Shown here: positions 13,863 to 42,157 of the stretch, piece by piece | Numbering within the stretch: the first letter of the stretch is position 1 | Layout of the letters: every line of letters begins with the position of its first letter | Virus record (IMG/VR): IMGVR_UViG_2534681936_000017 | Location: 1-42,567 of that record | From: a virus | Lineage: Duplodnaviria > Heunggongvirae > Uroviricota > Caudoviricetes | DNA: 42,567 bases | Reading direction: 5' to 3' (one strand) | Notes under the pieces: model-generated | The model's database searches: none | What the model was told of the DNA's origin: nothing | What the model saw: only the letters and a program-made list of their open reading frames with translations | Translations under genes and position numbers: made by a program

Positions 13863-14403
13863 CTTTATCCCTCACTACATGGGTAATCGCTCTGCGATAT
13901 TGCCCGGTGTCAATTAATGGTTTCGCCAGTTCGGTTCCCGGGGATTCGCCAGCAGCACGCCGGGCAAGTTCCAGTGTTGCCCCCTTGCGCCCCCGACGAG
14001 CCCGGGCTTCAACAGTACTGTCAGCAAGCGGCGTAAAGCCGGTAATGGTCATATAACGCCTGACGCCATTAGCGGCCAGCGTTCCGGCACGGTTGAGTGC
14101 GCGTTCTGCTCCCGCAGCATTACCATCAAGTGCAGCCTGCGCCGCGGCTTTGAGCTGCGGCACCGTCTGCTCTTCTGCCGATTTAACGCCGGGGACCAGG
14201 TGAGGTCGTGGCGGGATGTTCTGCTCTGGTGAGCCGTATTCGTTGAGGTAACCGATGCCCGCATTACCAAACGGAACATCATCCCGCCCGCTGTCTTCCG
14301 AAGGGATGCCGACCAGCACATCTTTTTTGGTTAACGACCTGAGCGCATCCAGAATGGCCTTAGCGTTATCCACCCTCGTTGTTACACCGCTTTTGAAACT
14401 CAT
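13849..14403 (-). CDS. Head-tail joining protein (hypothetical)
   Basis: 184 aa in head-tail connector position. Confidence 0.4.
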
Positions 14404-14807
14404 AGCTGGCGACCACCTGCACCGAACATCGTGATCAACTGATAAAATTCAGCGCCATATCGGGTGTTATTCCAGAAACCTGCATCAGGATTCAGCGTCG
14501 CGCTGGTGTCATAACTGACGCTTACCTTATCCACGGACTTTGAGGACTGAACACCATTGGTTGAACCGCCCGGACCACCAGCCAGCATCGCCCGGCTGTC
14601 TGCCGCCCAGAGCGTCATGTAGTGCGCAACGAACAACCCGGCAAAGTACGGAAACAACTTTTTGCCGGTGACGTTTTCGCTCAGCAGTTCATCGGCCAGA
14701 TTCAGACGAAACTGGATTTGCGCTTCGGGATATTTGGCAGGGTCAGCAAACTGCGGGAAGTCGCGGCGAAAATCACTTACCGCTGGCAGACTTTGATTCT
14801 TTGGCAT
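14400..14807 (-). CDS. Head completion protein (hypothetical)
   Basis: 135 aa downstream of the capsid gene. Confidence 0.4.
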
Positions 14808-14994
14808 TTTTTACCTCGTTACGCGCGTCTGTGGCTTTGCCAACGGATACTTCCGCGTGCGCACGAGTGAACCAGTGCGTGGCAACGACTTCCTCCACAG
14901 CATGACGGCCTTTAACAAACTCGCGCCGAGAACCGTCGGGAAGCGTGAGCACAAACGGGGTATGTACGTGTATTACTGCATCATTTTTTGCCAT
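14773..14994 (-). CDS. Small virion-associated protein (hypothetical)
   Basis: 73 aa ORF between the capsid gene and the head-completion gene. Confidence 0.3.
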
Positions 14995-15035
14995 CGGGTC
15001 ATCCTTAATGGCCCCGCCAGGGGGCCATGTGGCTG

Positions 15036-16498: not shown

Positions 16499-17719
16499 TT
16501 ACCCTTTACGGTTTGCCCAGAATTCAGCGTTTTGTTTGTTCAGGGAAGCGATACTGGTCATGCCCATGTTTGGGCGCTGTGCATCGCCGGTGGTGGCGCG
16601 GGTGTTTCGCCCTTTGGCAATCTCAGACACGGCATTAAACGCCATGTCGACCGATTGTTTCGGTAATTTGCGGATATCCGCATCACCGACTATCTGGCGA
16701 ACCAGCGTTTTGTCAGCAGAAGCCAGAACCTCACGTTTGAACGCGGTCGGTTTCATCTTACGGCTCAGATCGATACCCGGAACGATAACTTCAGCACGCC
16801 AGGCTGAGTCACCAGTAATCGTGGTTTCCTCTTCATCGTCCTCGCCGTCACCGGTCGGATTATCGTCAGGCTTATTGTCGTTATCGCCCGTCGCATTTCC
16901 TTCCAGCTTAGCCAGCAGGGCTTTCAGTAATGTTTTGAGGTCATCATCACTGTCGCCGGTTGGACCTCCGCCCATCTCTGGTGCTTTGTCCGGTAGCGGT
17001 TGCTGCGGGGACAGGTTGATGTTGAGATTAACGCCCTGCGGCAAATCCCCCTCATCTCCTGTAACCGATGCGGGAGCCGACTCCACCAGTTCGTTCATGG
17101 TGTCAGCGTCACCCGTTTTGATGGCCGTGCGCATGCGGGTCCACCAGCTTTTCTTTTGATTTGCCATTGTGTCTCTGTCTCCAATTGCACAACGATTTCC
17201 GGCTCTGCCTTTAGGGACAAGAGCCACATGGTTTCCGGTAATATCGACCTGCTCGGCTTTACCTGGCTCGGTCTGCTCATACTCCGCGTCATAGCCGCAC
17301 GACACTTCGCGCAGGCCATCTTCGATAAGCTGAATGGCGCTTTCGTCTTTGACGATAAGGTCAACCAGCATCAAATCAGACTGCTCACCCGTCCCGCGCC
17401 GGACATTCTGGAGGTGCCCGACAGCAAGCTCTTTCCAGTTCTCGGGATTTACCAGCCGCACATTCCCGTTTTCATCTTCAGGATGCAGAATCGTGATGCT
17501 CATCCCTTCGAATGAGGCAAGCGTGGCCGGATGGAATACCTGCTCAGGAGAACGCGTGACGACTATTTCACCGAACTTATCGGGTTTCAGTTTTGGCAGG
17601 TCATCAGCACCATAGAGCTGCTTACCTGTTCGTCCTATCGGCACGTCTTTGCACAGCAACGAGCCGTCAGCCAGCTGGTAGCGGGTTTCTCCCAGCCGGG
17701 TATTGAAAAAATATTTCAT
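16499..17719 (-). CDS. Head scaffold / maturation protease-like protein
   Basis: 406 aa with an acidic low-complexity central region (DDNPTGDGEDDEEE) and helical C-terminus; follows the head morphogenesis gene. Confidence 0.5.
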   Translation of the reverse strand: MKYFFNTRLGETRYQLADGSLLCKDVPIGRTGKQLYGADDLPKLKPDKFGEIVVTRSPEQVFHPATLASFEGMSITILHPEDENGNVRLVNPENWKELAVGHLQNVRRGTGEQSDLMLVDLIVKDESAIQLIEDGLREVSCGYDAEYEQTEPGKAEQVDITGNHVALVPKGRAGNRCAIGDRDTMANQKKSWWTRMRTAIKTGDADTMNELVESAPASVTGDEGDLPQGVNLNINLSPQQPLPDKAPEMGGGPTGDSDDDLKTLLKALLAKLEGNATGDNDNKPDDNPTGDGEDDEEETTITGDSAWRAEVIVPGIDLSRKMKPTAFKREVLASADKTLVRQIVGDADIRKLPKQSVDMAFNAVSEIAKGRNTRATTGDAQRPNMGMTSIASLNKQNAEFWANRKG

Positions 17720-25990: not shown

Positions 25991-26146
25991 AATGACGCCC
26001 TCTGGTGGTTTCTTAATAACTCACCACCGACGACGCCAATCATCTGGTGGTGAACTGTGCAGGGTTGGCGTAACCGGGAAACCGACCGGCGCGGATCTCT
26101 CCGCCCCCACACAGCCCACCATAATTCAGATGTGCGCGTGCATACG

Positions 26147-26175
26147 ACAATAAAAAACACGCTCGCGGCGTGTAT
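26147..26175 (-). terminator. tR'-like terminator downstream of the late promoter
   Basis: Minus strand acacgc-N5-gcgtgt hairpin followed by TTTTTTATT, about 60-80 nt downstream of the predicted promoter. Confidence 0.5.
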
Positions 26176-26234
26176 CTGTCGCGGTCTCTATCCAGGACGC
26201 CAATCCCGACGCCAGATTTTGCTGACGCGTGAGG

Positions 26235-26264
26235 AATATAGCCCCGGATAACAGATTGAGTCAA
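26235..26264 (-). promoter_or_regulatory. Late promoter pR'-like (-35 TTGACT, 18-bp spacer, -10 TATATT); expected Q-utilisation region
   Basis: Hexamers read on the minus strand; -35 overlaps the Q stop codon, as lambda pR' sits just after Q. Confidence 0.4.
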
Positions 26265-28262: not shown

Positions 28263-28418
28263 TTACTTCTCAGATTCGTAGTCTACGAAGACAGCGACCT
28301 CCGTCTGGCCGGTTCGGATTCGTACCTCGCAGAGGTCTTTCCTCGTTACCAGTGCCGTCACAATGACGGTTAAACAGATGACGATCAGGGCGATTAACAT
28401 CGCCTTGTGCTGCTTCAT
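28263..28418 (-). CDS. hok: Hok/Gef-family type I toxin
   Basis: MKQHKAMLIALIVICLTVIVTALVTRKDLCEVRIRTGQTEVAVF... is the Hok/HokD signature. Track ORF 28263-28475 extends upstream in the same frame. Confidence 0.85.
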   Translation of the reverse strand: MKQHKAMLIALIVICLTVIVTALVTRKDLCEVRIRTGQTEVAVFVDYESEK

Positions 28419-28439
28419 AGACTGCTCCTCCTTGCCTTT

Positions 28440-28540
28440 CGGCACGTAAGAGGCTAACCTATGTGTGTAGAGCATAGATATGGCCTCAGATTAATGTTAA
28501 GCGTCTTGCAGGACGCGTAATGTTAACTGGGGCTTTTCTC
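28440..28540 (+). ncRNA. sok: Sok-like antisense RNA (approximate placement only)
   Basis: Inferred from hok/sok locus organisation: antisense to the hok leader around the translation initiation region. Ends not determined. Confidence 0.3.
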
Positions 28541-28708
28541 TGTCTGCCTTACAGTGGCATGCCCGAGGCAGACAGCCTCAAGCACCCGCAGCAATTTTAC
28601 TTAACTCCCCTTTTCCCGCAAACCGTTTTTATCCCCAGCGGCAAATCGAATACACCACCAGCGCCACCGCCATTGCGATTCCTGCCGTTGTGAATGCTTC
28701 AGGCCAGG

Positions 28709-30030: not shown

Positions 30031-30766
30031 AAGCGCCCCCGGCAATCACTTTTCCGACACAATACGACTGGAGGAATCGACAATCTGTCGGACAATATCC
30101 CGGTGCTTGTTCAGCTCCCGCAGCGCGGCGCAGCTCGCGGTTTGCCATATGCAGCGATGGTAAAATCAGGTCATCCGCTTGCATTTCAGTAAACGATGGC
30201 AACGACTGCACAATGTCCGCCACAGTTTCTGTTTTAATATCTTCCTGTGTTGCCGCTTCCTGTACTGGTAACGCAACACCTGCGGGCTGAGGAAAGGCCT
30301 TACCATCAGTTTCCGTTACCGATGCAGCTTTCGGCTCTGCTGGTAAATTATCGCCCGGTATGCAGTAACGAAATTTACCGTTCTGATTTACGCGAATCAG
30401 ACGCCCCTTGCTGATTGCCATTGCCAGCGTTGAAGCTACTTTGCGTGATGTGGTACCGAACAACGCAGCCAGCTCATCCGCCGTTTGTGGTCCGCGTTGT
30501 TCAATCGTCGCGGTTAAATCGCACTCTGAGATTTTCGCTACTGTTGCCGTGGTGGTTTCTTCCGGCTGTTCTTCCGGCGCTGGCTGTTCCTGCTGAACGT
30601 TGTTATCAGCCACACGCCAGGTGTACGCGCTTTTATCAACGAAACCAGCTTTTTTCAGTTCCCATAGTTCGTTCAGCACTTCTTCACGACTGATATCAAG
30701 TCGCGCAGCAAGTTCTATGGATGTGGCTTTTCCCATTGCTTTCAGTGCGTCAAAAACAGTCTCCAT
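29990..30766 (-). CDS. Hypothetical protein with N-terminal winged-helix-like domain and acidic linker
   Basis: Start ATG 30766 (RBS GGGAG); N-terminus [30 protein letters not shown] is HTH-like; directly after the DnaC-like gene (YdaW position). Confidence 0.5.
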
Positions 30767-32324: not shown

Positions 32325-32401
32325 TTGTTTTCACCTTGTAACGCTCACAGCGTTACATTTAACTGATACCGAACAAAACAATCCGGCACGATTAATTTCA
32401 A

Positions 32402-32824
32402 TCAATGCACTACGACAGAATCGCCGGGCGACCCACCACCGCTGAAATGTGCTTTCCGGTAAACGGCCTGGACTGCATCATCATGCGCATCAATTGCCGT
32501 ACTCAACGCTTCCTGCGCCGCCAGTAATGCACGGCGTTCCAGGGTATCGAAGATGCAGAGTCGGTGACGCAGCTCGCGCGGAAGAATTGCCAGAACCGCA
32601 GGGATCAGTTTCTGAATTTTTTCCCTTTGCGCTTTCGTTTCACCTTTCAACCAACGGTGATAGATATTCTGCTGATTGTTCCAGTCCTTGCCTGGTACCA
32701 GGGGCAATTCGCCGCCCCCCTGGCGCAGATATTCTTCAGTAATTGCGTTAGCGACCCACGCCTGCCCTTTTTCGGCTGCCAGGGCTAACAACACTGATTC
32801 GATGTGCTCATGCCTGATTTTCAT
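32402..32824 (-). CDS. YdaT-like protein (Rac-type cII-position gene)
   Basis: 140 aa directly after the Cro-like gene, overlapping its stop. Confidence 0.5.
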   Translation of the reverse strand: MKIRHEHIESVLLALAAEKGQAWVANAITEEYLRQGGGELPLVPGKDWNNQQNIYHRWLKGETKAQREKIQKLIPAVLAILPRELRHRLCIFDTLERRALLAAQEALSTAIDAHDDAVQAVYRKAHFSGGGSPGDSVVVH

Positions 32825-34512: not shown

Positions 34513-34750
34513 ATTCATTTCCTTACTGGTTGTGTGAGAACTTCAGTAAAGATACCACCAAAGCCCGGAGGTGGTGAAATAAAACCGGGCACAACACGAA
34601 GGCGCATTTCCGGTATTCATAAAGAGTCGGTCTTGTCTGTTAAATTTAAATGGTGGGAGTGCGCCTCCGGTTGTAAATAACGACATTGCTGTGTGTAGTC
34701 TTTAGCGGCATCAGTTCTACTCCGTGGCTGCCCTGCCGCCCCTTTTTAAA

Positions 34751-34892
34751 GTGAATTTTGTGATGCGGTGAATGCGGCTAAGCGCACGCGGCACAGTTAA
34801 AAGCATCAGTGTTATGGGTGGATTATCCGGCGTTAATTGTTAACTGGTTAACGTCACCTGGAGGCACCAGGCACCGCATCGACAAAATTCAT
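34751..34892. repeat. Inverted repeat pair (about 20 bp arms, 19/20 with one indel) flanking a 100-bp spacer upstream of kilR
   Basis: gtgaattttgtgatgcggtg (34751-34770) versus reverse complement of caccgcatcgacaaaattcat (34872-34892); right arm ends 20 nt before the kilR RBS. Confidence 0.5.
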
Positions 34893-34912
34893 TTGTAAAA
34901 ATGGAGATAATT

Positions 34913-35134
34913 ATGATTGCTCATCACTTCGGAACTGATGAAATACCACGTCAGTGTGTGACCCCTGGCGATTATGTTCTTCATGAAGGTCGGACATATA
35001 TCGCCTCGGCAAACAATATTAAAAAGCGAAAACTTTATATTCGTAGCCTGACTACAAAAACATGCATTTCTGACTGCATGATTAAAGTCTTCCTCGGTCG
35101 TGATGGTTTACCTGTAAAGGCGGAGTCATGGTAA
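34913..35134 (+). CDS. kilR: KilR-like host-killing protein (cell division inhibitor)
   Basis: 73 aa from ATG 34913 (RBS GGAGA); [26 protein letters not shown]... matches Rac KilR as recalled. Confidence 0.65.
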
Positions 35135-35304
35135 TGACTAAGAAAATAAAATGTGCTTATCACCTTTGCAATAAAGAAATTGAAGAAAGCAAAATCATTA
35201 CAAGACCACTTCATTTCATGCGTGGAGTTATACCAACGACGGAAATGAAAAAATATTGTAGTGAAATCTGTGCCGAAAAAGACCAGATGGCACACGAACT
35301 TTAA
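35134..35304 (+). CDS. YdaE-like small zinc-ribbon protein
   Basis: 56 aa, not in the ORF track (below size cut-off); [18 protein letters not shown]...CSEICAEKDQMAHEL; ATG overlaps kilR stop. Confidence 0.5.
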   Translation: MTKKIKCAYHLCNKEIEESKIITRPLHFMRGVIPTTEMKKYCSEICAEKDQMAHEL

Positions 35305-35378
35305 TTAACTGACTATCCGAAACTGAATTTATGCCAGCAATGGCAGGGATTCGCTCAACCTTAATTAAGGAGAAAAAC

Positions 35379-35654
35379 ATGATTACCAGTTATGAAGCCA
35401 CTGTTGTTACTACTGATGACATTGTTCACGAAGTCAGCCTGGAAGGAAAGCGTATTGGCTACGTGATTAAGACAGAAAATAAAGAAACCCCATTCACTGT
35501 GGTTGATATCGACGGTCCATCAGGCAACGTTAAAACACTTAACGATGGTGTTAAAAAAATGTGTCTGGTGCACATAGGAAAGAATCTGCCCGCAGAAAAA
35601 AAAGCCGAATTTCTGGCAACTCTGATTGCAATGAAATTAAAAGGTGAAATCTGA
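35379..35654 (+). CDS. RacC-like protein
   Basis: 91 aa from ATG 35379 (RBS AAGGAGA); immediately upstream of recE-like gene. Confidence 0.5.
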   Translation: MITSYEATVVTTDDIVHEVSLEGKRIGYVIKTENKETPFTVVDIDGPSGNVKTLNDGVKKMCLVHIGKNLPAEKKAEFLATLIAMKLKGEI

Positions 35655-35753
35655 AAAAAAGAAAGCCTGCACACTGTGCAGGCCTGAGTGAAGAACCTGG
35701 GACATTTATTCATCACTCGCAGTAATTTTAATCTGAGTTGAGGTTAAAAAACA

Positions 35754-38700
35754 ATGAGCACCGATAAACAAGTTTACCCACTGTATTACGAAGCAAAAAA
35801 TGACAAAGTAAGAAAACGTCTCGGTATTAAAGGCGGTTTCTACTGGGCTGAAGCGAAAAAATTATCCATTGCCATCTCCCGTGGTGCTGTTGCGATTGAC
35901 GATGCTGGCTACGATGAAGATGACTTTAAAAAACCTGTTCGCGTCAATTTGCCCGTTGTTGATGACCTTCCACCAGAAGGCGTATTTGATACGGAATTCT
36001 GCAACCGTTACGAAAAAGGCGGGGAAGATGGCATCACAATGGTATTTATCGCGCCCTCATCCTCTGCGCAGGACAAACCAGCCAGCACTGACAATACCAA
36101 TGTTAATGGCGAAGACATGACTGAGATTGAGGAGAATATGCTACTCCCGATTTCTGACCAAGAGCTGCCCATTCGCTGGCTTGCTCAACACGGCAGCGAA
36201 AAACCGGTAACGCACGTTTCACGCGACGAACTCCAGACATTACATATTGCACGGGCTGAAGAACTACCAGCTGTTACTGCCCTGGCTGTTTCCCACAAAA
36301 CCAGCCTGCTCGACCCGCTGGAGATTCGCGATCTTCACAGACTGGTTCGTGATACTGACAAAGTTTTCCCTAATCCAGGCAATTCAAGTCTGGGGCTGAT
36401 GACTGCTTTTTTCGAAGCATACCTGGACGCAGACTACACCGATCGCGGTCTGCTGACAAAAGAGTGGATGAAAGGAAATCGTGTTTCACGCATCACTCGC
36501 ACGGCTTCCGGTGCTAATGCTGGCGGCGGGAACCTCACCGATCGCGGCGAAGGTTTCGTCCACGATCTGACGTCACTGGCACGCGATGTAGCCACTGGCG
36601 TACTGGCCCGTTCAATGGACGTGGACATTTATAACCTTCATCCGGCACACGCTAAACGTGTCGAGGAAATTATCGCTGAAAATAAACCGCCCTTTTCTGT
36701 TTTCCGCGACAAATTCATCGCCATGCCTGGCGGGCTGGATTATTCCCGCGCCATCGTGGTTGCGTCCGTAAAAGAAGCACCAATTGGGATCGAGGTTATC
36801 CCCGCACACGTCACTGAATATCTGAACAAAGTACTGACTGAAACCGATCATGCCAACCCTGATCCGGAAATCGTAGATATTGCCTGCGGTCGCTCCTCTG
36901 CCCCGATGCCGCAGCGGGTAACAGAAGAAGAAAAACAGGATGATGAAGAAAAACCGCAACCATCTTGCGCAATGGCAGATGAACAGGCAACGGCTGAAAC
37001 AGTGGAACCGGATGCAACTGAACATCATCAGGACACGCAGCCGCTGGATGCTCAGTCACAGGTAAATTCTGTTGATGCGAAATATCAGAAACTGCGGGCA
37101 GAACTCCATGAAGCCCGGAAAACCATTCCGCCCAAAAATCCTGTCGATGCCGACAAATTGCTGGCTGCCTCTCGCGGAGAATTTGTTGAGGGGATTAGCG
37201 ACCCGAATGATCCGAAATGGGTGAAGGGGATTGAAACCCGCGATTCAGTGAACCAGAACCAACAAGAATCGGAACAGAACGACCAGAAAGCGGAACAAAA
37301 CAGCCCAAATGCGTTACAAAACGAGCCAGAAACGAAACAGCCTGAACCAGTGGCGCAACAGGAAGTGGAAAAAGTTTGCAATGCCTGCGGTCAGTCTGGC
37401 GGGGATAACTGCCCTGACTGTGGTGCGGTGATGGGCGACGCAACATATCAGGAAACATTCGATGACGAGAATCAGGTTGAAGTTCGGGAAAATGAGCCGG
37501 AGAAAATGGAAGGCGCTGAACATCCGCACAATGAGAATGCTGACAGCGATCCGCATCGCAATTGCAGTGATGAAACTGGCGAAGCGTCAGCTCCTGTAGC
37601 AACTGAAATCATGTGGCCGTCATATTTCGAGCCAGGCCGCTATGAAAACCTCCCGAACGAGGTTTATCACTCCGCCAACGGAATAAGCAGCACGATGCTG
37701 AAGGATGCCCGTATCAGCCTGATGTATTACCACGGGCGGCACATTGCCGGAACTATTCCGAACGAGGAAAGTGATGCACTGCTGCGTGGGCGGATCATTC
37801 ACAGCTATGTTCTGGAAACGGATAAATTCGCTGATGAATATGCCATTCCGGTACCGGTTCCTGAATATGTGGTTACTACTTCTAACGAACTGATCGCCAT
37901 CATTAAAAAACACAATGCCAGTCTGCCAGCACTGATGACACCAGAGCAGATGAAAGAGTGGATCGAAAGCTACAACAGCACTCTTATACAGCCACTGTCT
38001 GTAAGTGCTGGGGCCGAAGAAACAGGCATCCTTTACGGTTCGCTTCCGGTGGAATTTCGGCGTATTCCTGAGGGGGAAAAACACACAGCATCAGCAATGA
38101 AAGCCTGTATTAAAGAATACAACGCAAGCCTCCCTCCTCTGTTGAAAACCAGTGGAGCACGGGAGCAGCTTCTGGATCAAATTGAAACTGTAGATCCAGA
38201 ACTGGCAAAAAAAGAACGTGCTAAATCTTTGCCTTACAACATCAGTGGCACAAAAGAGCAATTAACCGAAATCGCACGGAAAATTCGCCCGGAACTGGTG
38301 ACACTGGAGGACTGGCAAAAACGCCAGCAAGAAGAAAACGCCGGGAAAACGTTTATCAGTCCGGATATGTATGAACAGGCAAAAAATATTCACGCGGCAC
38401 TGCAAAACAATACCGATGCAGCAAGGCTACTCAACCACCCGGATCGCAAATCTGAAATCAGCTATTTCGGGTTTGATGAAGAAACCGGGCTGGAAATCAG
38501 GGTCCGTCCTGATATCGAAATCCGGCTGCCATACGAAAGCATTTGCGCTGACGTGAAGTCAGTCAGCCTCGGTTATGTGCGGCAGGAACGACTTAAAGAT
38601 CGCCTGCACCGTGAAATTATTGAGCGTGATTATCACCTCAGCGCCGCAATGTATTGCGATGTGGCAAACCTGGACAAATTTTTCTGGATCTTCGTCAACA

Positions 38701-38900
38701 AAGATGCTGGCTATCACTGGGTGGCAGTCGTGGAAGCCTCGCAGGAACTCCTTGAACTTGGTCGACAGGAATATCGCCGGACGCTACACCAGATAAACGA
38801 AGCGCTGGAGACAAACAACTGGCCAGCACCGATTACCGAAAGTTATACCGACGAATTAAACGACTTTGATCTTCGTCGTCTTGAAGCACTGAGCATCTGA
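35754..38900 (+). CDS. recE: RecE-family exonuclease (exonuclease VIII-like), mosaic with a divergent C-terminal nuclease domain
   Basis: 1048 aa; central region ([16 protein letters not shown]...[12 protein letters not shown]...[18 protein letters not shown]) matches K-12 RecE as recalled; the C-terminal about 400 aa differ from K-12 RecE. Confidence 0.8.
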
Positions 38901-38911
38901 GGAAGGACACA

Positions 38912-39964
38912 ATGAACGAATTAACTCAACAAGAAAATATTAACTCTAATGTTGCGGTTTTCAGCCCTCAGTCTCTGGCTGCAATTCAGACGTTTTCTCA
39001 GGTAATGGCTTCCGGCATGGCTACTGTACCGGAACACCTCCGGGGAAATCCATCAGACTGCATGGCCATAACCATGCAGGCGATGCAGTGGCAAATGAAC
39101 CCTTACGCAGTAGCTCAGAAAACTTTCGTTGTGAATGGTGTACTCGGATATGAAGCGCAACTGGTTAATGCCGTAATCAGTACTCGTGGGCCGTTAACCG
39201 GGCGTATTGAATATGACTGGTTCGGGCCGTGGGAAAAAATTATCGGGAAATTTGAAATCAGGAAGAACGACAAAGGGAAAGAATATCGTGTACCTGGCTG
39301 GAAGCTGGTCGATGAAAACGGGATCGGAGTTCGCGTCCAGGCAACACTACGCGGAGAGAGCAAACCACGCGTACTGGAGTTACTTCTGGCGCAGGCCAGA
39401 ACACGTAACTCAACGTTATGGGCCGATGATCCTCGTCAGCAGCTTGCCTATCTGGCACTGAAACGCTGGGCGCGCCTTTATTGCCCTGAAGTGATTCTTG
39501 GAGTGTACACCCGGGACGAACTGGACGAACCACAGGAAAAAATCATTAATCCGGTTCAGGAACATAAAAACACATCCGCCTGCCGTGCGGAACGTGAAAC
39601 AACAATTATTGAGCAGGATGTCGGGGAAAACTGGATCAGTGCTTTCCGTGAACGTATTGAGCAGGCACAAAGCACCGGAGAAACAACAGCACTTCGGCAG
39701 GAAGTGGAAGAGCATAAAAATACACTTGGCGCTCTCTATACGGAACTTAAAGGAAAAGTGGTTCAGCGTCATCACCGTCTCAATGCTATTGCCCGTATTG
39801 AGAAGATGATAAATGACCTGCCTTCATCAGGTGATCCGGAAGCAGAACAAAAATTTACTGCTCTGGAAAATACGCTGAATGCTGCACGACCACATCTGGG
39901 AGAATTATATGAGGCGTATAAAACGACACTGACAGATATGAAACCAGAATATATCGGCTCCTGA
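38912..39964 (+). CDS. recT: RecT/Red-beta-family single-strand annealing protein
   Basis: 350 aa directly after recE (RBS GAGGAAGG); segment QLAYLALKRWARLYCPEVILGVYTRDE resembles the conserved Bet/RecT core; not the K-12 RecT sequence. Confidence 0.6.
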   Translation: MNELTQQENINSNVAVFSPQSLAAIQTFSQVMASGMATVPEHLRGNPSDCMAITMQAMQWQMNPYAVAQKTFVVNGVLGYEAQLVNAVISTRGPLTGRIEYDWFGPWEKIIGKFEIRKNDKGKEYRVPGWKLVDENGIGVRVQATLRGESKPRVLELLLAQARTRNSTLWADDPRQQLAYLALKRWARLYCPEVILGVYTRDELDEPQEKIINPVQEHKNTSACRAERETTIIEQDVGENWISAFRERIEQAQSTGETTALRQEVEEHKNTLGALYTELKGKVVQRHHRLNAIARIEKMINDLPSSGDPEAEQKFTALENTLNAARPHLGELYEAYKTTLTDMKPEYIGS

Positions 39965-40027
39965 TATTTACTATGGCGGTGTAGCCTCGCCGCCATAACA
40001 AAACTTTATTTTATGAGAGAAAAGACA

Positions 40028-40222
40028 ATGCGGTATGAAAAAGTCAAACCATGTCCATTTTGTGGTTGTCCATCAGTAACGGTGAAAGCCATTTCAGGAT
40101 ATTACCGAGCGAAGTGTAACGGGTGCGAATCCCGAACCGGCTATAGTGGAAGTGAAAAAGAAGCACTTGCAAGATGGAATAAACGAACTACTGGAAATAA
40201 TAATGGAGGTGTTCATGTATAA
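40028..40222 (+). CDS. lar: Lar/RalR-like restriction alleviation protein
   Basis: 64 aa from ATG 40028; MRYEKVKPCPFCGCPSVTVKAISGYYRAKCNGCESRTGY... with zinc-ribbon cysteines. Confidence 0.65.
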   Translation: MRYEKVKPCPFCGCPSVTVKAISGYYRAKCNGCESRTGYSGSEKEALARWNKRTTGNNNGGVHV

Positions 40223-40403
40223 AATTACCGCCACTATTGAAATGGAAGGTGGCACACCTACTAACTGGACAAGATATTCAAAATCTAAATTAACGAAATC
40301 AGAATGCGAAAAAATGCTCTCAGGGAAAAAAGAAGCAGGCGTTTCCAGAGAGCAGAAAGTAAAACTGATAAATTTTAATTGCGAGAAACTTCTGTCCTCG
40401 TGA
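40215..40403 (+). CDS. Small hypothetical protein (YdaC position)
   Basis: 62 aa, RBS GGAGG 6 nt upstream; overlaps lar stop. Confidence 0.4.
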   Translation: MYKITATIEMEGGTPTNWTRYSKSKLTKSECEKMLSGKKEAGVSREQKVKLINFNCEKLLSS

Positions 40404-40503
40404 GCTGCATTATATACAAATTAGAACTTCATAGCTGATTATTAAAAATCAACCACACCCGCCAGTATTCTGTATATTTACTGGCGGTCATATCGTAAGA
40501 GGT

Positions 40504-40791
40504 ATGGCAATGAATCTTGTGACACTCAAAACGTGGGGAAAACTCAGATATCCGGATAACCCACCATCAATATCAACGCTGAGACGATGGGCAAGGAATG
40601 GAAACATTTATCCTGCACCTGAACTACACGGGAGGAGTTACAGGGTGGTTCCGGAGGCTTTCTATATCAACCCAAATAAGGTTGATACCGATATAACACA
40701 CCATCAGCCTAATGGGCGACAAGGGAGAGACAGTCCGTTACTGGAGAAGTTAAAACATGCAGCGGAAAAAATACGATCCCAATTTGCCTAA
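40504..40791 (+). CDS. xis: Excisionase (Xis-like)
   Basis: LVTLKTWGKLRYPDNPPSISTLRRWARNGNIYPAPELHGRSYRV follows the lambda Xis pattern; 3' end overlaps the int start. Confidence 0.6.
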   Translation: MAMNLVTLKTWGKLRYPDNPPSISTLRRWARNGNIYPAPELHGRSYRVVPEAFYINPNKVDTDITHHQPNGRQGRDSPLLEKLKHAAEKIRSQFA

Positions 40792-41833
40792 AAACTTAAC
40801 ATATCGAAGGAGGGACAAAGCATATTACTGGCGCAACCCTCTGACGAAAGAAGAATTTACACTAGGTAAAATTTCAAGGAGAGATGCAGTAGCGCAGGCA
40901 ATTGAAGCAAATCATTATATATACAAAAACTACTCTCCTGCTGCCTTAATTGAAAAGCTTAAAGGGTTCGACTCATTTACTATGGCAGACTGGATTGAAC
41001 GTTACAAAACGATTCTTATAAGGAGAAAAGTGTCCAGAAATACTTATAAAATTCGGGTAAATCAACTGGAGACAATAAAAGAAAAATTGGGAGAGATTTT
41101 ACTGACAGAAATAACCACTCGCCATATTGCCGAGTTTCTTGATTTGTGGATTGAAGGAGGGAAAAACACAATGGCAGGATCAATGCGTTCTGTGTTGTCT
41201 GATATGTTTCGCGAGGCCATTGTTGAAGGACGTATATCTCAAAATCCAGTAACGCCAACAAGAGCACCGAAAATAGTAGTTACAAGAGAACGACTGAAAC
41301 TAAAGACATACAACTGCATCAGGGAGGCAGCAGATCAACTTCCGGCATGGTTCCCATTAGCTATGGATTTAGCCCTTGTAACAGGACAACGTCGTGAAGA
41401 CATAACGAATATGCGGTTCAGTGATATTTATGATGATCGTCTCCACATCAGGCAAATTAAGACAGGAATGATGATTGCTATCCCCCTGTCACTGAGCCTT
41501 CCTGTCGCTGGTCTACGGCTTGGTACAGTAGTTGAACGGTGCCGCCTGGTAAGCCGGGGAGATTATCTAATCAGTGCCGGAATTAGAAAAAACAGCCCTG
41601 ACGGCAGCATTCACCCGGATGGCCTGACAAAAAAATTTGTCGCAGCCAGAAAATTAACAGGTATCCAGTTCAGTGAAAACCCACCAACTTTTCACGAGAT
41701 CAGAAGTCTGGCTGGACGATTGTACAAAGAAACATGTGGAGAAGAATTTGCTCAGCGTCTACTTGGCCACACATCGGAGAAGACAACAAAAATGTATCTT
41801 GATGAGAGAGAAAAAACGTACTTACTGCTCTGA
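40757..41833 (+). CDS. int: Tyrosine integrase (lambda Int family)
   Basis: 358 aa; resembles lambda Int throughout ([16 protein letters not shown]..., [12 protein letters not shown]..., [13 protein letters not shown]). Confidence 0.9.
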
Positions 41834-41880: not shown

Positions 41881-41998
41881 AAAAAAGACCGGAATACAGA
41901 AATTCGAGTAAATTTCGGGGGATTTCGGGGAGACGTTTGCAACTGATTGATTTTAAATACAATTAAAAAAAGACCGAATACGATTCCTGTATTCGGTC
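41881..41998. repeat. Candidate att arm region: direct repeats AAAAAAGACCGGAATAC (41881-41897) and AAAAAAAGACCGAATAC (41965-41981), tandem ATTTCGGGG x2 (41912-41930), 10-bp-stem hairpin (41972-41998)
   Basis: Repeats lie within 170 bp of the int stop, where arm-type Int sites are expected; core site not identifiable without the other prophage end. Confidence 0.3.
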
Positions 41999-42157
41999 CA
42001 GGGAAATGGCTCTTGGGAGAGAGCCGTGCGCTAAAAGTTGGCATTAATGCAGGCTTAGTTGCCTTGCCCTTTAAGAATAGATGACGACGCCAGGTTTTCC
42101 AGTTTGCGTGCAAAATGGTCAATAAAAAGCGCGGTGGTCATCAGCTTAAATGTTAAA

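Follow-up and report, generated by a model that had tools for sequence, protein, structure and literature searches.

The DNA analyzed here (hereafter the window) is a viral stretch of 42,567 nucleotides (positions 1 to 42,567 of the IMG/VR record IMGVR_UViG_2534681936_000017, Caudoviricetes), in which a recE-like gene is directly followed by a gene encoding a single-stranded DNA annealing protein (annealase) of the RecT/Redβ superfamily. Both open reading frames (ORFs), of 1048 and 350 amino acids (aa), had been delimited in a first-pass annotation made from the sequence alone, and the same ORFs are annotated in RefSeq. According to our genome comparison, the queried 4.2-kb segment covering the two genes is identical in Escherichia coli O55:H7 FDAARGOS_946 and DEC5A. 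Placed in the early-left operon of a lambdoid, Rac-related E. coli O55:H7 prophage, the two genes make up an intact RecET-type module. RefSeq orders the genes rightward as kilR, a YdaE-family gene, a RacC-like gene, recE, a gene annotated "RecT family recombinase", ralR, a DUF1187 gene, excisionase, integrase and the host gene yebY. The features discussed below are collected in Table 1.

The RecE protein is a mosaic. It scores 1541 bits against the NCBIfam model NF007259 (cutoff 1269), mostly through its N-terminal and central regions. BLASTP alignment with K-12 RecE showed about 90% identity over aa ~108–610, low identity before aa 108 and about 29% in patches after aa 611. Resemblance to K-12 in the center of the protein, together with a divergent and longer C-terminal part, had been proposed in the first-pass annotation, which named uniform full-length identity to K-12 RecE and RecT as the observation that would speak against a mosaic; the alignment revealed no such uniformity. 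It also showed, as did blastn, that the first ~107 aa of RecE diverge from K-12, a point absent from that annotation. The central region contains a CxxC-x7-CxxC motif (C542...C556, positions 37377–37421) which is conserved in K-12 RecE and gives weak Pfam zinc-ribbon matches (E 0.02). This motif may form a small zinc-binding element in the N-terminal part of RecE.

At the DNA level, similarity to the K-12 Rac prophage covers positions 34551–35761 and 36092–37598, is absent from 37599 to 40006 and is back at 40007–40453 (blastn). Base-level alignment places the left junction at ~37585, where near-identity extends to "...GATGAAACTGGCGAAG" (protein "...CSDETGE|A") and is followed by abrupt divergence. 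On the right side, K-12 similarity returns at a GC-rich hairpin located about 10 nt past the stop codon of the annealase gene. The breakpoints are sharp on both sides. The exchanged block (~37586–39975, ~2.4 kb, compared to ~1.7 kb in K-12) corresponds exactly to the nuclease domain plus the annealase. The joint exchange of the two, as initially suspected, is thus borne out, and the early-left operon around the block is Rac-like. An AL1L pseudoknot is annotated near the inverted repeat in some O145 records; Rfam at its gathering threshold detected none in the window.

We then compared 100 loci with nuclease domains matching that of the window at 95% identity or more. Their central recE regions show 60 to 100% identity, and both annealase-core alleles are found with every central-region class. 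Since near-identical nuclease domains carry such varied central regions, the linker between the RecE domains is a recurrent crossover point.

Table 1. Features of the recE-annealase locus (coordinates of the window; pLDDT, predicted local distance difference test score)
Feature	Coordinates	Strand	Evidence
recE-like gene, 1048 aa, three-part mosaic	35754..38900	+	ORF; RefSeq recE WP_000102214.1; NCBIfam NF007259; Pfam PF06630 (aa 52-189) and PF12684 (aa 861-1025)
Divergent N-terminal patch of recE, aa ~3-113	35762..36091	+	Gap between blastn pieces; low BLASTP identity before aa 108
K-12 Rac-like central recE region, aa ~114-610	36092..37585	+	89.8% nucleotide identity to K-12 recE
Gifsy-type PD-(D/E)XK exonuclease domain, aa 611-1048	37586..38900	+	Catalytic residues H683, D920, D933-x-K935
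Helical insert, aa ~700-895, net ~+140 aa relative to K-12 RecE	37851..38438	+	Placed after the H683 helix and ahead of the first catalytic strand; AlphaFold2 pLDDT 84-94, all-helical
Annealase, 350 aa, RecT/Redβ superfamily	38912..39964	+	PF03837, 146.6 bits; phrog_561, E 3e-145
Annealase core, aa 10-215	38939..39556	+	Alignment A1 invariant-rich up to P214; strongly conserved, freely exchanged between loci
Annealase C-terminal helical domain, aa 239-347, tail type T1, proposed nuclease-docking element	39626..39952	+	AlphaFold2; tail tracks nuclease type
GC-rich inverted repeat TGGCGG...CCGCCA after the annealase stop	39974..39995	+	Alignment A5: TGGCGGTGTA...CGCCGCCA kept in both cassettes, also after K-12 recT
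Conserved right flank: ralR toxin gene (+) and RalA antitoxin small RNA (40221-40399, -)	40013..40399		Pfam Lar_restr_allev; RefSeq ralR; Rfam RF02694, 218 bits

Downstream of the junction, RecE extends over 438 aa, compared to 281 aa in K-12, and BLASTP detects only two weak patches of similarity, one of which reaches 29% over 133 aa (E 5e-8). Residues H683, D920 and D933-V-K935 align with H652, D748 and D759-V-K761 of K-12 RecE, which gives the domain the His...PD...DxK active site of RecE-type enzymes, and it has the RecE nuclease fold. The only relative of solved structure found by sequence is the K-12 RecE nuclease (PDB 3H4R, E 2.4e-5). The segment from the His helix to the first catalytic strand measures 217 aa, against 76 aa in K-12, and contains a helical insert without Pfam match, to which no family was assigned. 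At this position, K-12 RecE has disordered loops (aa 665–698) thought to capture DNA (PMC11611040). Aligned with the "Gifsy-1 prophage RecE" over 96% of its length, insert included, the domain shows 52% identity and belongs to this Gifsy-type lineage. It is also 50% identical to Klebsiella homologs and 49–52% identical to the corresponding domains of phages mEp237, HK225 and FSL SP-016, of a Klebsiella phage and of Aeromonas phage pAEv1818.

The annealase is a member of the RecT/Redβ superfamily, with 146.6 bits against PF03837 (gathering threshold 24), compared to 188.9 bits for K-12 RecT and 115.6 bits for λ Bet. In the PHROGs database, the three proteins fall into separate families: phrog_561 ("RecT-like ssDNA annealing protein") for the annealase of the window, phrog_148 for K-12 RecT and phrog_252 for Bet. 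As expected from the first-pass annotation, no similarity to K-12 RecT was found by BLASTP (E 0.37) or hhalign (E 0.21), and the curated RecT models TIGR00616 and NF007351 gave no match (NCBIfam, E ≤ 0.01). The same annotation had considered the protein closer to Bet, which holds only marginally: the curated Bet model TIGR01913 gave no match either at this threshold, and the remaining Bet signals are weak (BLASTP E 0.02; hhalign E 0.0012 with 19% probability, on one short motif; phrog_10056, E 7.7e-4). The top Foldseek match is the Redβ N-terminal domain at a non-significant E of 0.48, no significant PDB match was obtained, and a sequence search against solved structures returned no match. Judged by its sequence, the annealase is a third RecT/Redβ lineage whose resemblance to Bet is marginal. 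Its homologs at 57–70% identity are often named "enterohemolysin" in NCBI, UniRef and phage records. An "EHAP1-like" subgroup, set apart within RecT/Redβ and found in E. coli and Salmonella, is attributed to Iyer, Koonin and Aravind (2002) in PMC8093625. Given this historical name of its homologs, the annealase probably belongs to the EHAP1-like subgroup.

In the AlphaFold2 model, the annealase consists of a core (aa ~14–190), a disordered linker (aa ~192–236, pLDDT below 50) and a helical C-terminal domain (aa 239–347, pLDDT 77–89), the tail type of which we call T1. Redβ's C-terminal domain binds λ Exo (PMC11611040). Whether RecT-type annealases bind their nuclease in the same way was listed as an open question in this 2023 review (PMC11611040), and helical-bundle C-termini were reported in RecT proteins in a 2026 paper (PMC13490951). 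"Shuffling of partner interaction domains" is foreseen, without analysis, in a 2025 survey of lambdoid Rec modules.

The two genes do not form an unfamiliar combination. The RecET pair is of the known Gifsy type, carried on a Rac-type RecE N-terminal region, and is widespread, already sequenced and annotated. Gifsy-1, Gifsy-2, mEp237, HK225, SPN3UB, FSL SP-016 and Klebsiella prophages encode the same long RecE with a nuclease domain of ~430 aa and the helical insert (50–52% over 96%). In these systems the annealase directly follows, with the same architecture and a T1 tail (48% identity overall, 44–50% in the tail), and the genes sit at the same place in the early-left operon, ahead of small genes, xis and int. 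The annealase of the window is 48% identical to Gifsy-1 RecT over aa 10–349. Its tail alone matches Gifsy-1, Gifsy-2, HK225, mEp237, SPN3UB, FSL SP-016, PHB10 and several Klebsiella phages, at 44–50% in Gifsy-1/2, HK225, mEp237 and the Klebsiella prophages. A long RecE gene lies directly upstream of the annealase gene in 5/5 records inspected (Gifsy-2, HK225, PHB10 and two Klebsiella phages), and in the HK225 record its genes are noted to resemble "gifsy-1 prophage RecE" and "gifsy-2 prophage RecT" from E. coli E22. The pair type is likewise carried by phage mEp237 and by prophages of Klebsiella and Salmonella; for HK225 and Gifsy-2, the match lies in the nuclease domain and/or the tail. In contrast, the N-terminal and central part of RecE in the window follows K-12 Rac, with about 90% identity to K-12 and only 27–42% to the Gifsy-group phages, and the annealase core falls in a different core clade from those of Gifsy-2 and HK225 (55–58% identity). 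Derepressed Gifsy-1/2 recET suppress the recombination defects of recB mutants in Salmonella (PMC3121763), and the Gifsy-type RecET is therefore genetically functional.

With K-12 Rac (exonuclease VIII and RecT), the locus shares the operon context kilR-ydaE-racC-recE-recT-ralR, the central RecE region, the PD-DxK motif with its His, the nuclease fold and the two-gene exonuclease/annealase logic. However, its nuclease domain is 157 aa longer, its annealase resembles K-12 RecT neither in sequence nor in PHROG, and this annealase has a helical C-terminal domain of ~110 aa where K-12 RecT has ~25 aa past the Pfam domain. The integrase and the attachment site also differ. With λ Exo/Bet (Redα/Redβ), the pair shares the functional logic, the PF03837 domain (common to all three annealases) and a core, linker and helical C-terminal layout resembling that of Redβ. 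It differs from λ in that the nuclease is RecE-like and not λ Exo/YqaJ-like, the annealase has one short motif in common with Bet, and the window locus lacks a gam gene.

We next surveyed the distribution of the pair. Among 5,426 complete E. coli genomes, 192 carry the window-type nuclease, 193 the window-type annealase and 1,750 the K-12-type cassette. The window-type genes are conserved at 95–100% across ~190 of these genomes, where they are annotated as recE and RecT family. Central recE DNA was detected in 4,726 of the 5,426, far more than both cassettes, which together make up well under half, so other cassette types, truncations or nuclease-less RecE relatives must be common. One such structure was seen in E. 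coli EC6563 (locus L005, NZ_CP095856.1, 4156–7018), a Rac prophage at the ttcA site in which recE is annotated as truncated and runs straight into a RecT-family gene; of the window-type nuclease region it keeps no more than the first ~200 nt, and it resembles an internal deletion. Stx2a and PPompW phages match nt 1396–1829 of the query only. In phage Rac-SA53, the nuclease domain is 98.9% identical at the amino acid level; the recT DNA match is partial, with a tail 83% identical. A further record, PP818812.1 (793–4274, Actinobacillus phage vB_Apl-pPE4), carries the E. coli cassette at 96% nucleotide identity with an annealase 98.6% identical, and its attribution to Actinobacillus pleuropneumoniae as a host looks odd given this near-identity. 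A literature search on recombineering with the Gifsy-type RecET or on phage Rac-SA53 returned nothing relevant.

To relate the annealase tail to the upstream nuclease, we used the annealase as seed to gather about 400 loci in collections of viruses, metagenomes and genomes, and typed 220 unique combinations, the nuclease types being set with a tblastn table. A Gifsy-type nuclease is accompanied by a T1 tail in 179/179 unique loci. Short stand-alone nucleases of the K-12 type (Pantoea, Rheinheimera and others; 8 unique combinations) occur with tails T4, T5 or T13, YqaJ/λ-Exo-like nucleases with T6–T9 and T12 (several unique combinations), and an upstream nuclease that could not be identified with T2 and T3 (several unique combinations). 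Two loci that first appeared as exceptions, L182 and L228, were rejected as ORF-picking or contig-edge artefacts on the basis of the tblastn table.

The core does not follow this rule; counting about 420 related loci in all, it is the tail of the annealase that goes with the nuclease type. Three core clades each hold both T1/Gifsy-type and T4/T5/K-12-type members, and by global alignment the core of the window is 78% identical to that of Pantoea and 61% to that of E. coli BCE049. This last strain (locus L004, NZ_CP042250.1, 5134–6222) carries a second annealase allele within the same backbone: its nuclease domain is 99% identical to that of the window, its annealase core ~58%, and its final ~70 annealase residues do not differ. 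About 30 complete E. coli genomes have an allele of this form and align with the annealase gene over no more than its final ~220 nt. In Aeromonas phage pAEv1818 and 23 related contigs, a core resembling K-12 RecT (31%, E 1e-27) is fused to a T1-like tail (E 9e-14), and the adjoining nuclease is of the Gifsy type. Mantel tests on 99 de-replicated Gifsy-type loci gave r = 0.87 (partial 0.86) for nuclease and tail, and r = 0.29 (partial −0.05) for nuclease and core, the core lying physically between the other two. In the control comparisons with the flanks, what stands out most is the decoupling of the core from all neighboring segments (r 0.31–0.42).

Taken together, we read the locus as a RecET module with a chimeric RecE (Rac-type N-terminal and central part, Gifsy-type nuclease) and a co-transferred annealase of the third subgroup whose C-terminal domain is matched to the nuclease, and we give this reading a probability of roughly 0.8. 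The Rac-type region is joined to the Gifsy-lineage exonuclease domain exactly at the inter-domain linker "...CSDETGE", and the annealase arrived with the nuclease domain in a single ~2.4-kb block. By homology, RecE would resect double-stranded DNA ends in the 5'-3' direction, and the annealase would be loaded on the 3' overhang and anneal it to complementary single-stranded DNA. The annealase would combine an exchangeable core, a disordered linker and a C-terminal domain matched to the nuclease, on which, as the comparative data suggest, it may physically dock. If the C-terminal domain is the nuclease-matched element, nuclease domain and tail would travel as a unit even though the core located between them is freely exchanged. 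The comparison of sequences suggests that the tail acts as a nuclease-docking element, and the coupling between nuclease and tail is likely functional. A broader version of this idea is tentative, and we hold it at slightly under even odds: the helical C-terminal domain of RecT-family annealases would be a portable adaptor that sets the partner exonuclease, T1 being the adaptor for the Gifsy-type nuclease, possibly by docking on the helical insert, and having moved between at least two core subfamilies.

Several observations weigh against the reading of the module as a matched pair. Both AlphaFold2 models, of the nuclease and of the annealase, have a moderate overall confidence (mean pLDDT 68). 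The tail/nuclease rule has a sole exception (1 unique combination), L216 on the metagenome contig Ga0308161_1019315 (1685–3609), where a short K-12-type nuclease of 288 aa, 51% identical to the C-terminal domain of K-12 RecE, is followed by an annealase with a tail that resembles T1 distantly (~32% identity). The sample of loci is seeded on the annealase and redundant, with few independent shuffling events, roughly 4–6. The prophage may not be fully viable either, because two genes outside the recET module are annotated as frameshifted, its late genes being complete-looking. In addition, the Mantel controls gave correlations of the nuclease with two further segments, the upstream central region (r 0.71) and the downstream flank (r 0.57), and of the tail with that flank (r 0.66, partial 0.42). 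Since the flanks correlate too, part of the nuclease-tail correlation reflects shared backbone ancestry, and for this reason we do not take the Mantel result as proof of co-evolution. These correlations, together with L216, would fit a covariation arising from common ancestry of the backbone or from common host adaptation instead of tail docking; indeed the Redβ C-terminal domain binds the host single-stranded DNA-binding protein besides Exo (PMC11611040, PMC13490951). We nonetheless find this account unlikely, as nuclease and tail remain the tightest pair (r 0.86, partial 0.79 given the downstream flank), and the tail class follows the nuclease family over three core clades and, in Aeromonas, into another core subfamily and a different host. 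Moreover, E. coli is a single host, and the same core family has different tails with different nucleases in related genera.

The frameshifted genes (a ydaT-like gene and a DUF1627 gene) would also be expected if the pair were a decaying, non-functional remnant of a cryptic prophage, and K-12 recET is itself silent unless activated. However, both ORFs of the window are full length with intact catalytic residues and are highly conserved across genomes, counterparts exist in the isolated phage Rac-SA53, and the prophage keeps terminase, head, lysis and integrase genes according to its RefSeq annotation, which makes such decay very improbable. Shared families on both sides (PF12684 for the two nuclease domains, PF03837 for the two annealases) would be compatible with a fast but gradual divergence of the RecE C-terminal part and RecT without any exchange. 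To this we attach almost no credence: at ~37585 identity falls off from ~90% to background over a few bases, and it is restored just past the annealase stop, which refutes gradual divergence; relatives of the cassette in other genera, at 50–85%, are far closer to it than the K-12 cassette is; and near-identical nuclease domains sit behind divergent central regions. The name borne by its homologs could likewise suggest that the 350-aa protein is an "enterohemolysin" toxin, a possibility we regard as negligible given its strong match to the RecT family and phrog_561, the constant position of its gene directly after a RecE-type nuclease, and the treatment of EHAP1-like proteins as a RecT/Redβ subgroup in PMC8093625. 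The direction of the exchange is less clear-cut. A long RecE with the Gifsy-type nuclease and the annealase of the window could be ancestral, and K-12 Rac RecET derived through the gain of a short, stand-alone-type nuclease and RecT. The Gifsy-type nuclease is indeed nearly always the C-terminal domain of a long RecE-like ORF (at least 800 aa in 159/171, median 1045) in Salmonella, Klebsiella, Serratia and Aeromonas, and outside E. coli the K-12-type nucleases found beside the annealase family of the window are all stand-alone (273–339 aa). On the other hand, the K-12-type cassette is nine times commoner in E. coli (1,750 versus ~192 genomes), the sampling was seeded on the annealase and not on K-12 RecT, so that long RecE proteins with K-12-type domains in other genera may be missed, and RecE homologs are both long and short according to the review PMC11611040. 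K-12 Rac may be the derived chimera, a polarity that we only infer and that we consider quite possible, if somewhat improbable.

The context of the module is only in part that of a Rac prophage. The conserved Rac backbone assumed in the first-pass annotation is present in the early-left operon, where kilR, ydaE, racC, recE and ralR/RalA show Rac-like synteny with 88–94% nucleotide identity to K-12 Rac in the matching segments. The ralR/RalA flank is 93.5% identical to K-12 (blastn), RalA being antisense to the ralR region (Rfam). This assumption fails for the integrase, excisionase and attachment site. No DNA similarity to K-12 Rac was found by blastn for the integrase and excisionase, and the prophage does not occupy ttcA with IntR/XisR, the K-12 Rac arrangement. 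Because the genes of the host small RNAs SraC/RyeA (+) and SdsR/RyeB (−), detected by Rfam at 41961–42105 directly beyond the integrase (40757–41833), and yebY adjoin the integrase, the prophage is inserted at ryeA/ryeB-yebY. Other RNA genes were observed in the window. A match to DicF RNA (34690–34741, +; Rfam 53.8 bits, gathering score 48) closely precedes kilR, in sequence with 88% identity to K-12 Rac. A C4 antisense RNA with a1/b1 targets and isrK, a P1/P7-style immunity RNA, adjoins an ORF6N-domain gene, and a sok antitoxin RNA adjoins a Hok/Gef gene (window positions 26043–26241 (−) and 28413–28587 (−)). The DUF1627 and ydaT-like genes marked as frameshifted by RefSeq are located at 14292–15012 and 16648–17071 of the DEC5A locus (L002), corresponding to ~30045–30765 and ~32401–32824 of the window.

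Lambdoid recombination modules are mosaic and, as a genome feature, the locus represents ordinary phage mosaicism. Because the crossover at the linker places two very different cassettes on nearly the same region, the window and K-12 Rac offer a clean natural comparison for the role of the large RecE N-terminal region. Natural chimeras for the study of partner recognition are also available in BCE049-type E. coli, Pantoea, Rheinheimera, Aeromonas pAEv1818 and the exceptional locus L216. The pair, proposed early on as possibly useful for recombineering, could be an alternative system native to E. coli, as a candidate. The covariation of tail and nuclease bears on the open question of how RecT-type annealases bind their nuclease, and is the part most likely to interest specialists. 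If the C-terminal domain is indeed a portable adaptor, the natural chimeras would define a specificity code, and any annealase core could be paired with any nuclease.

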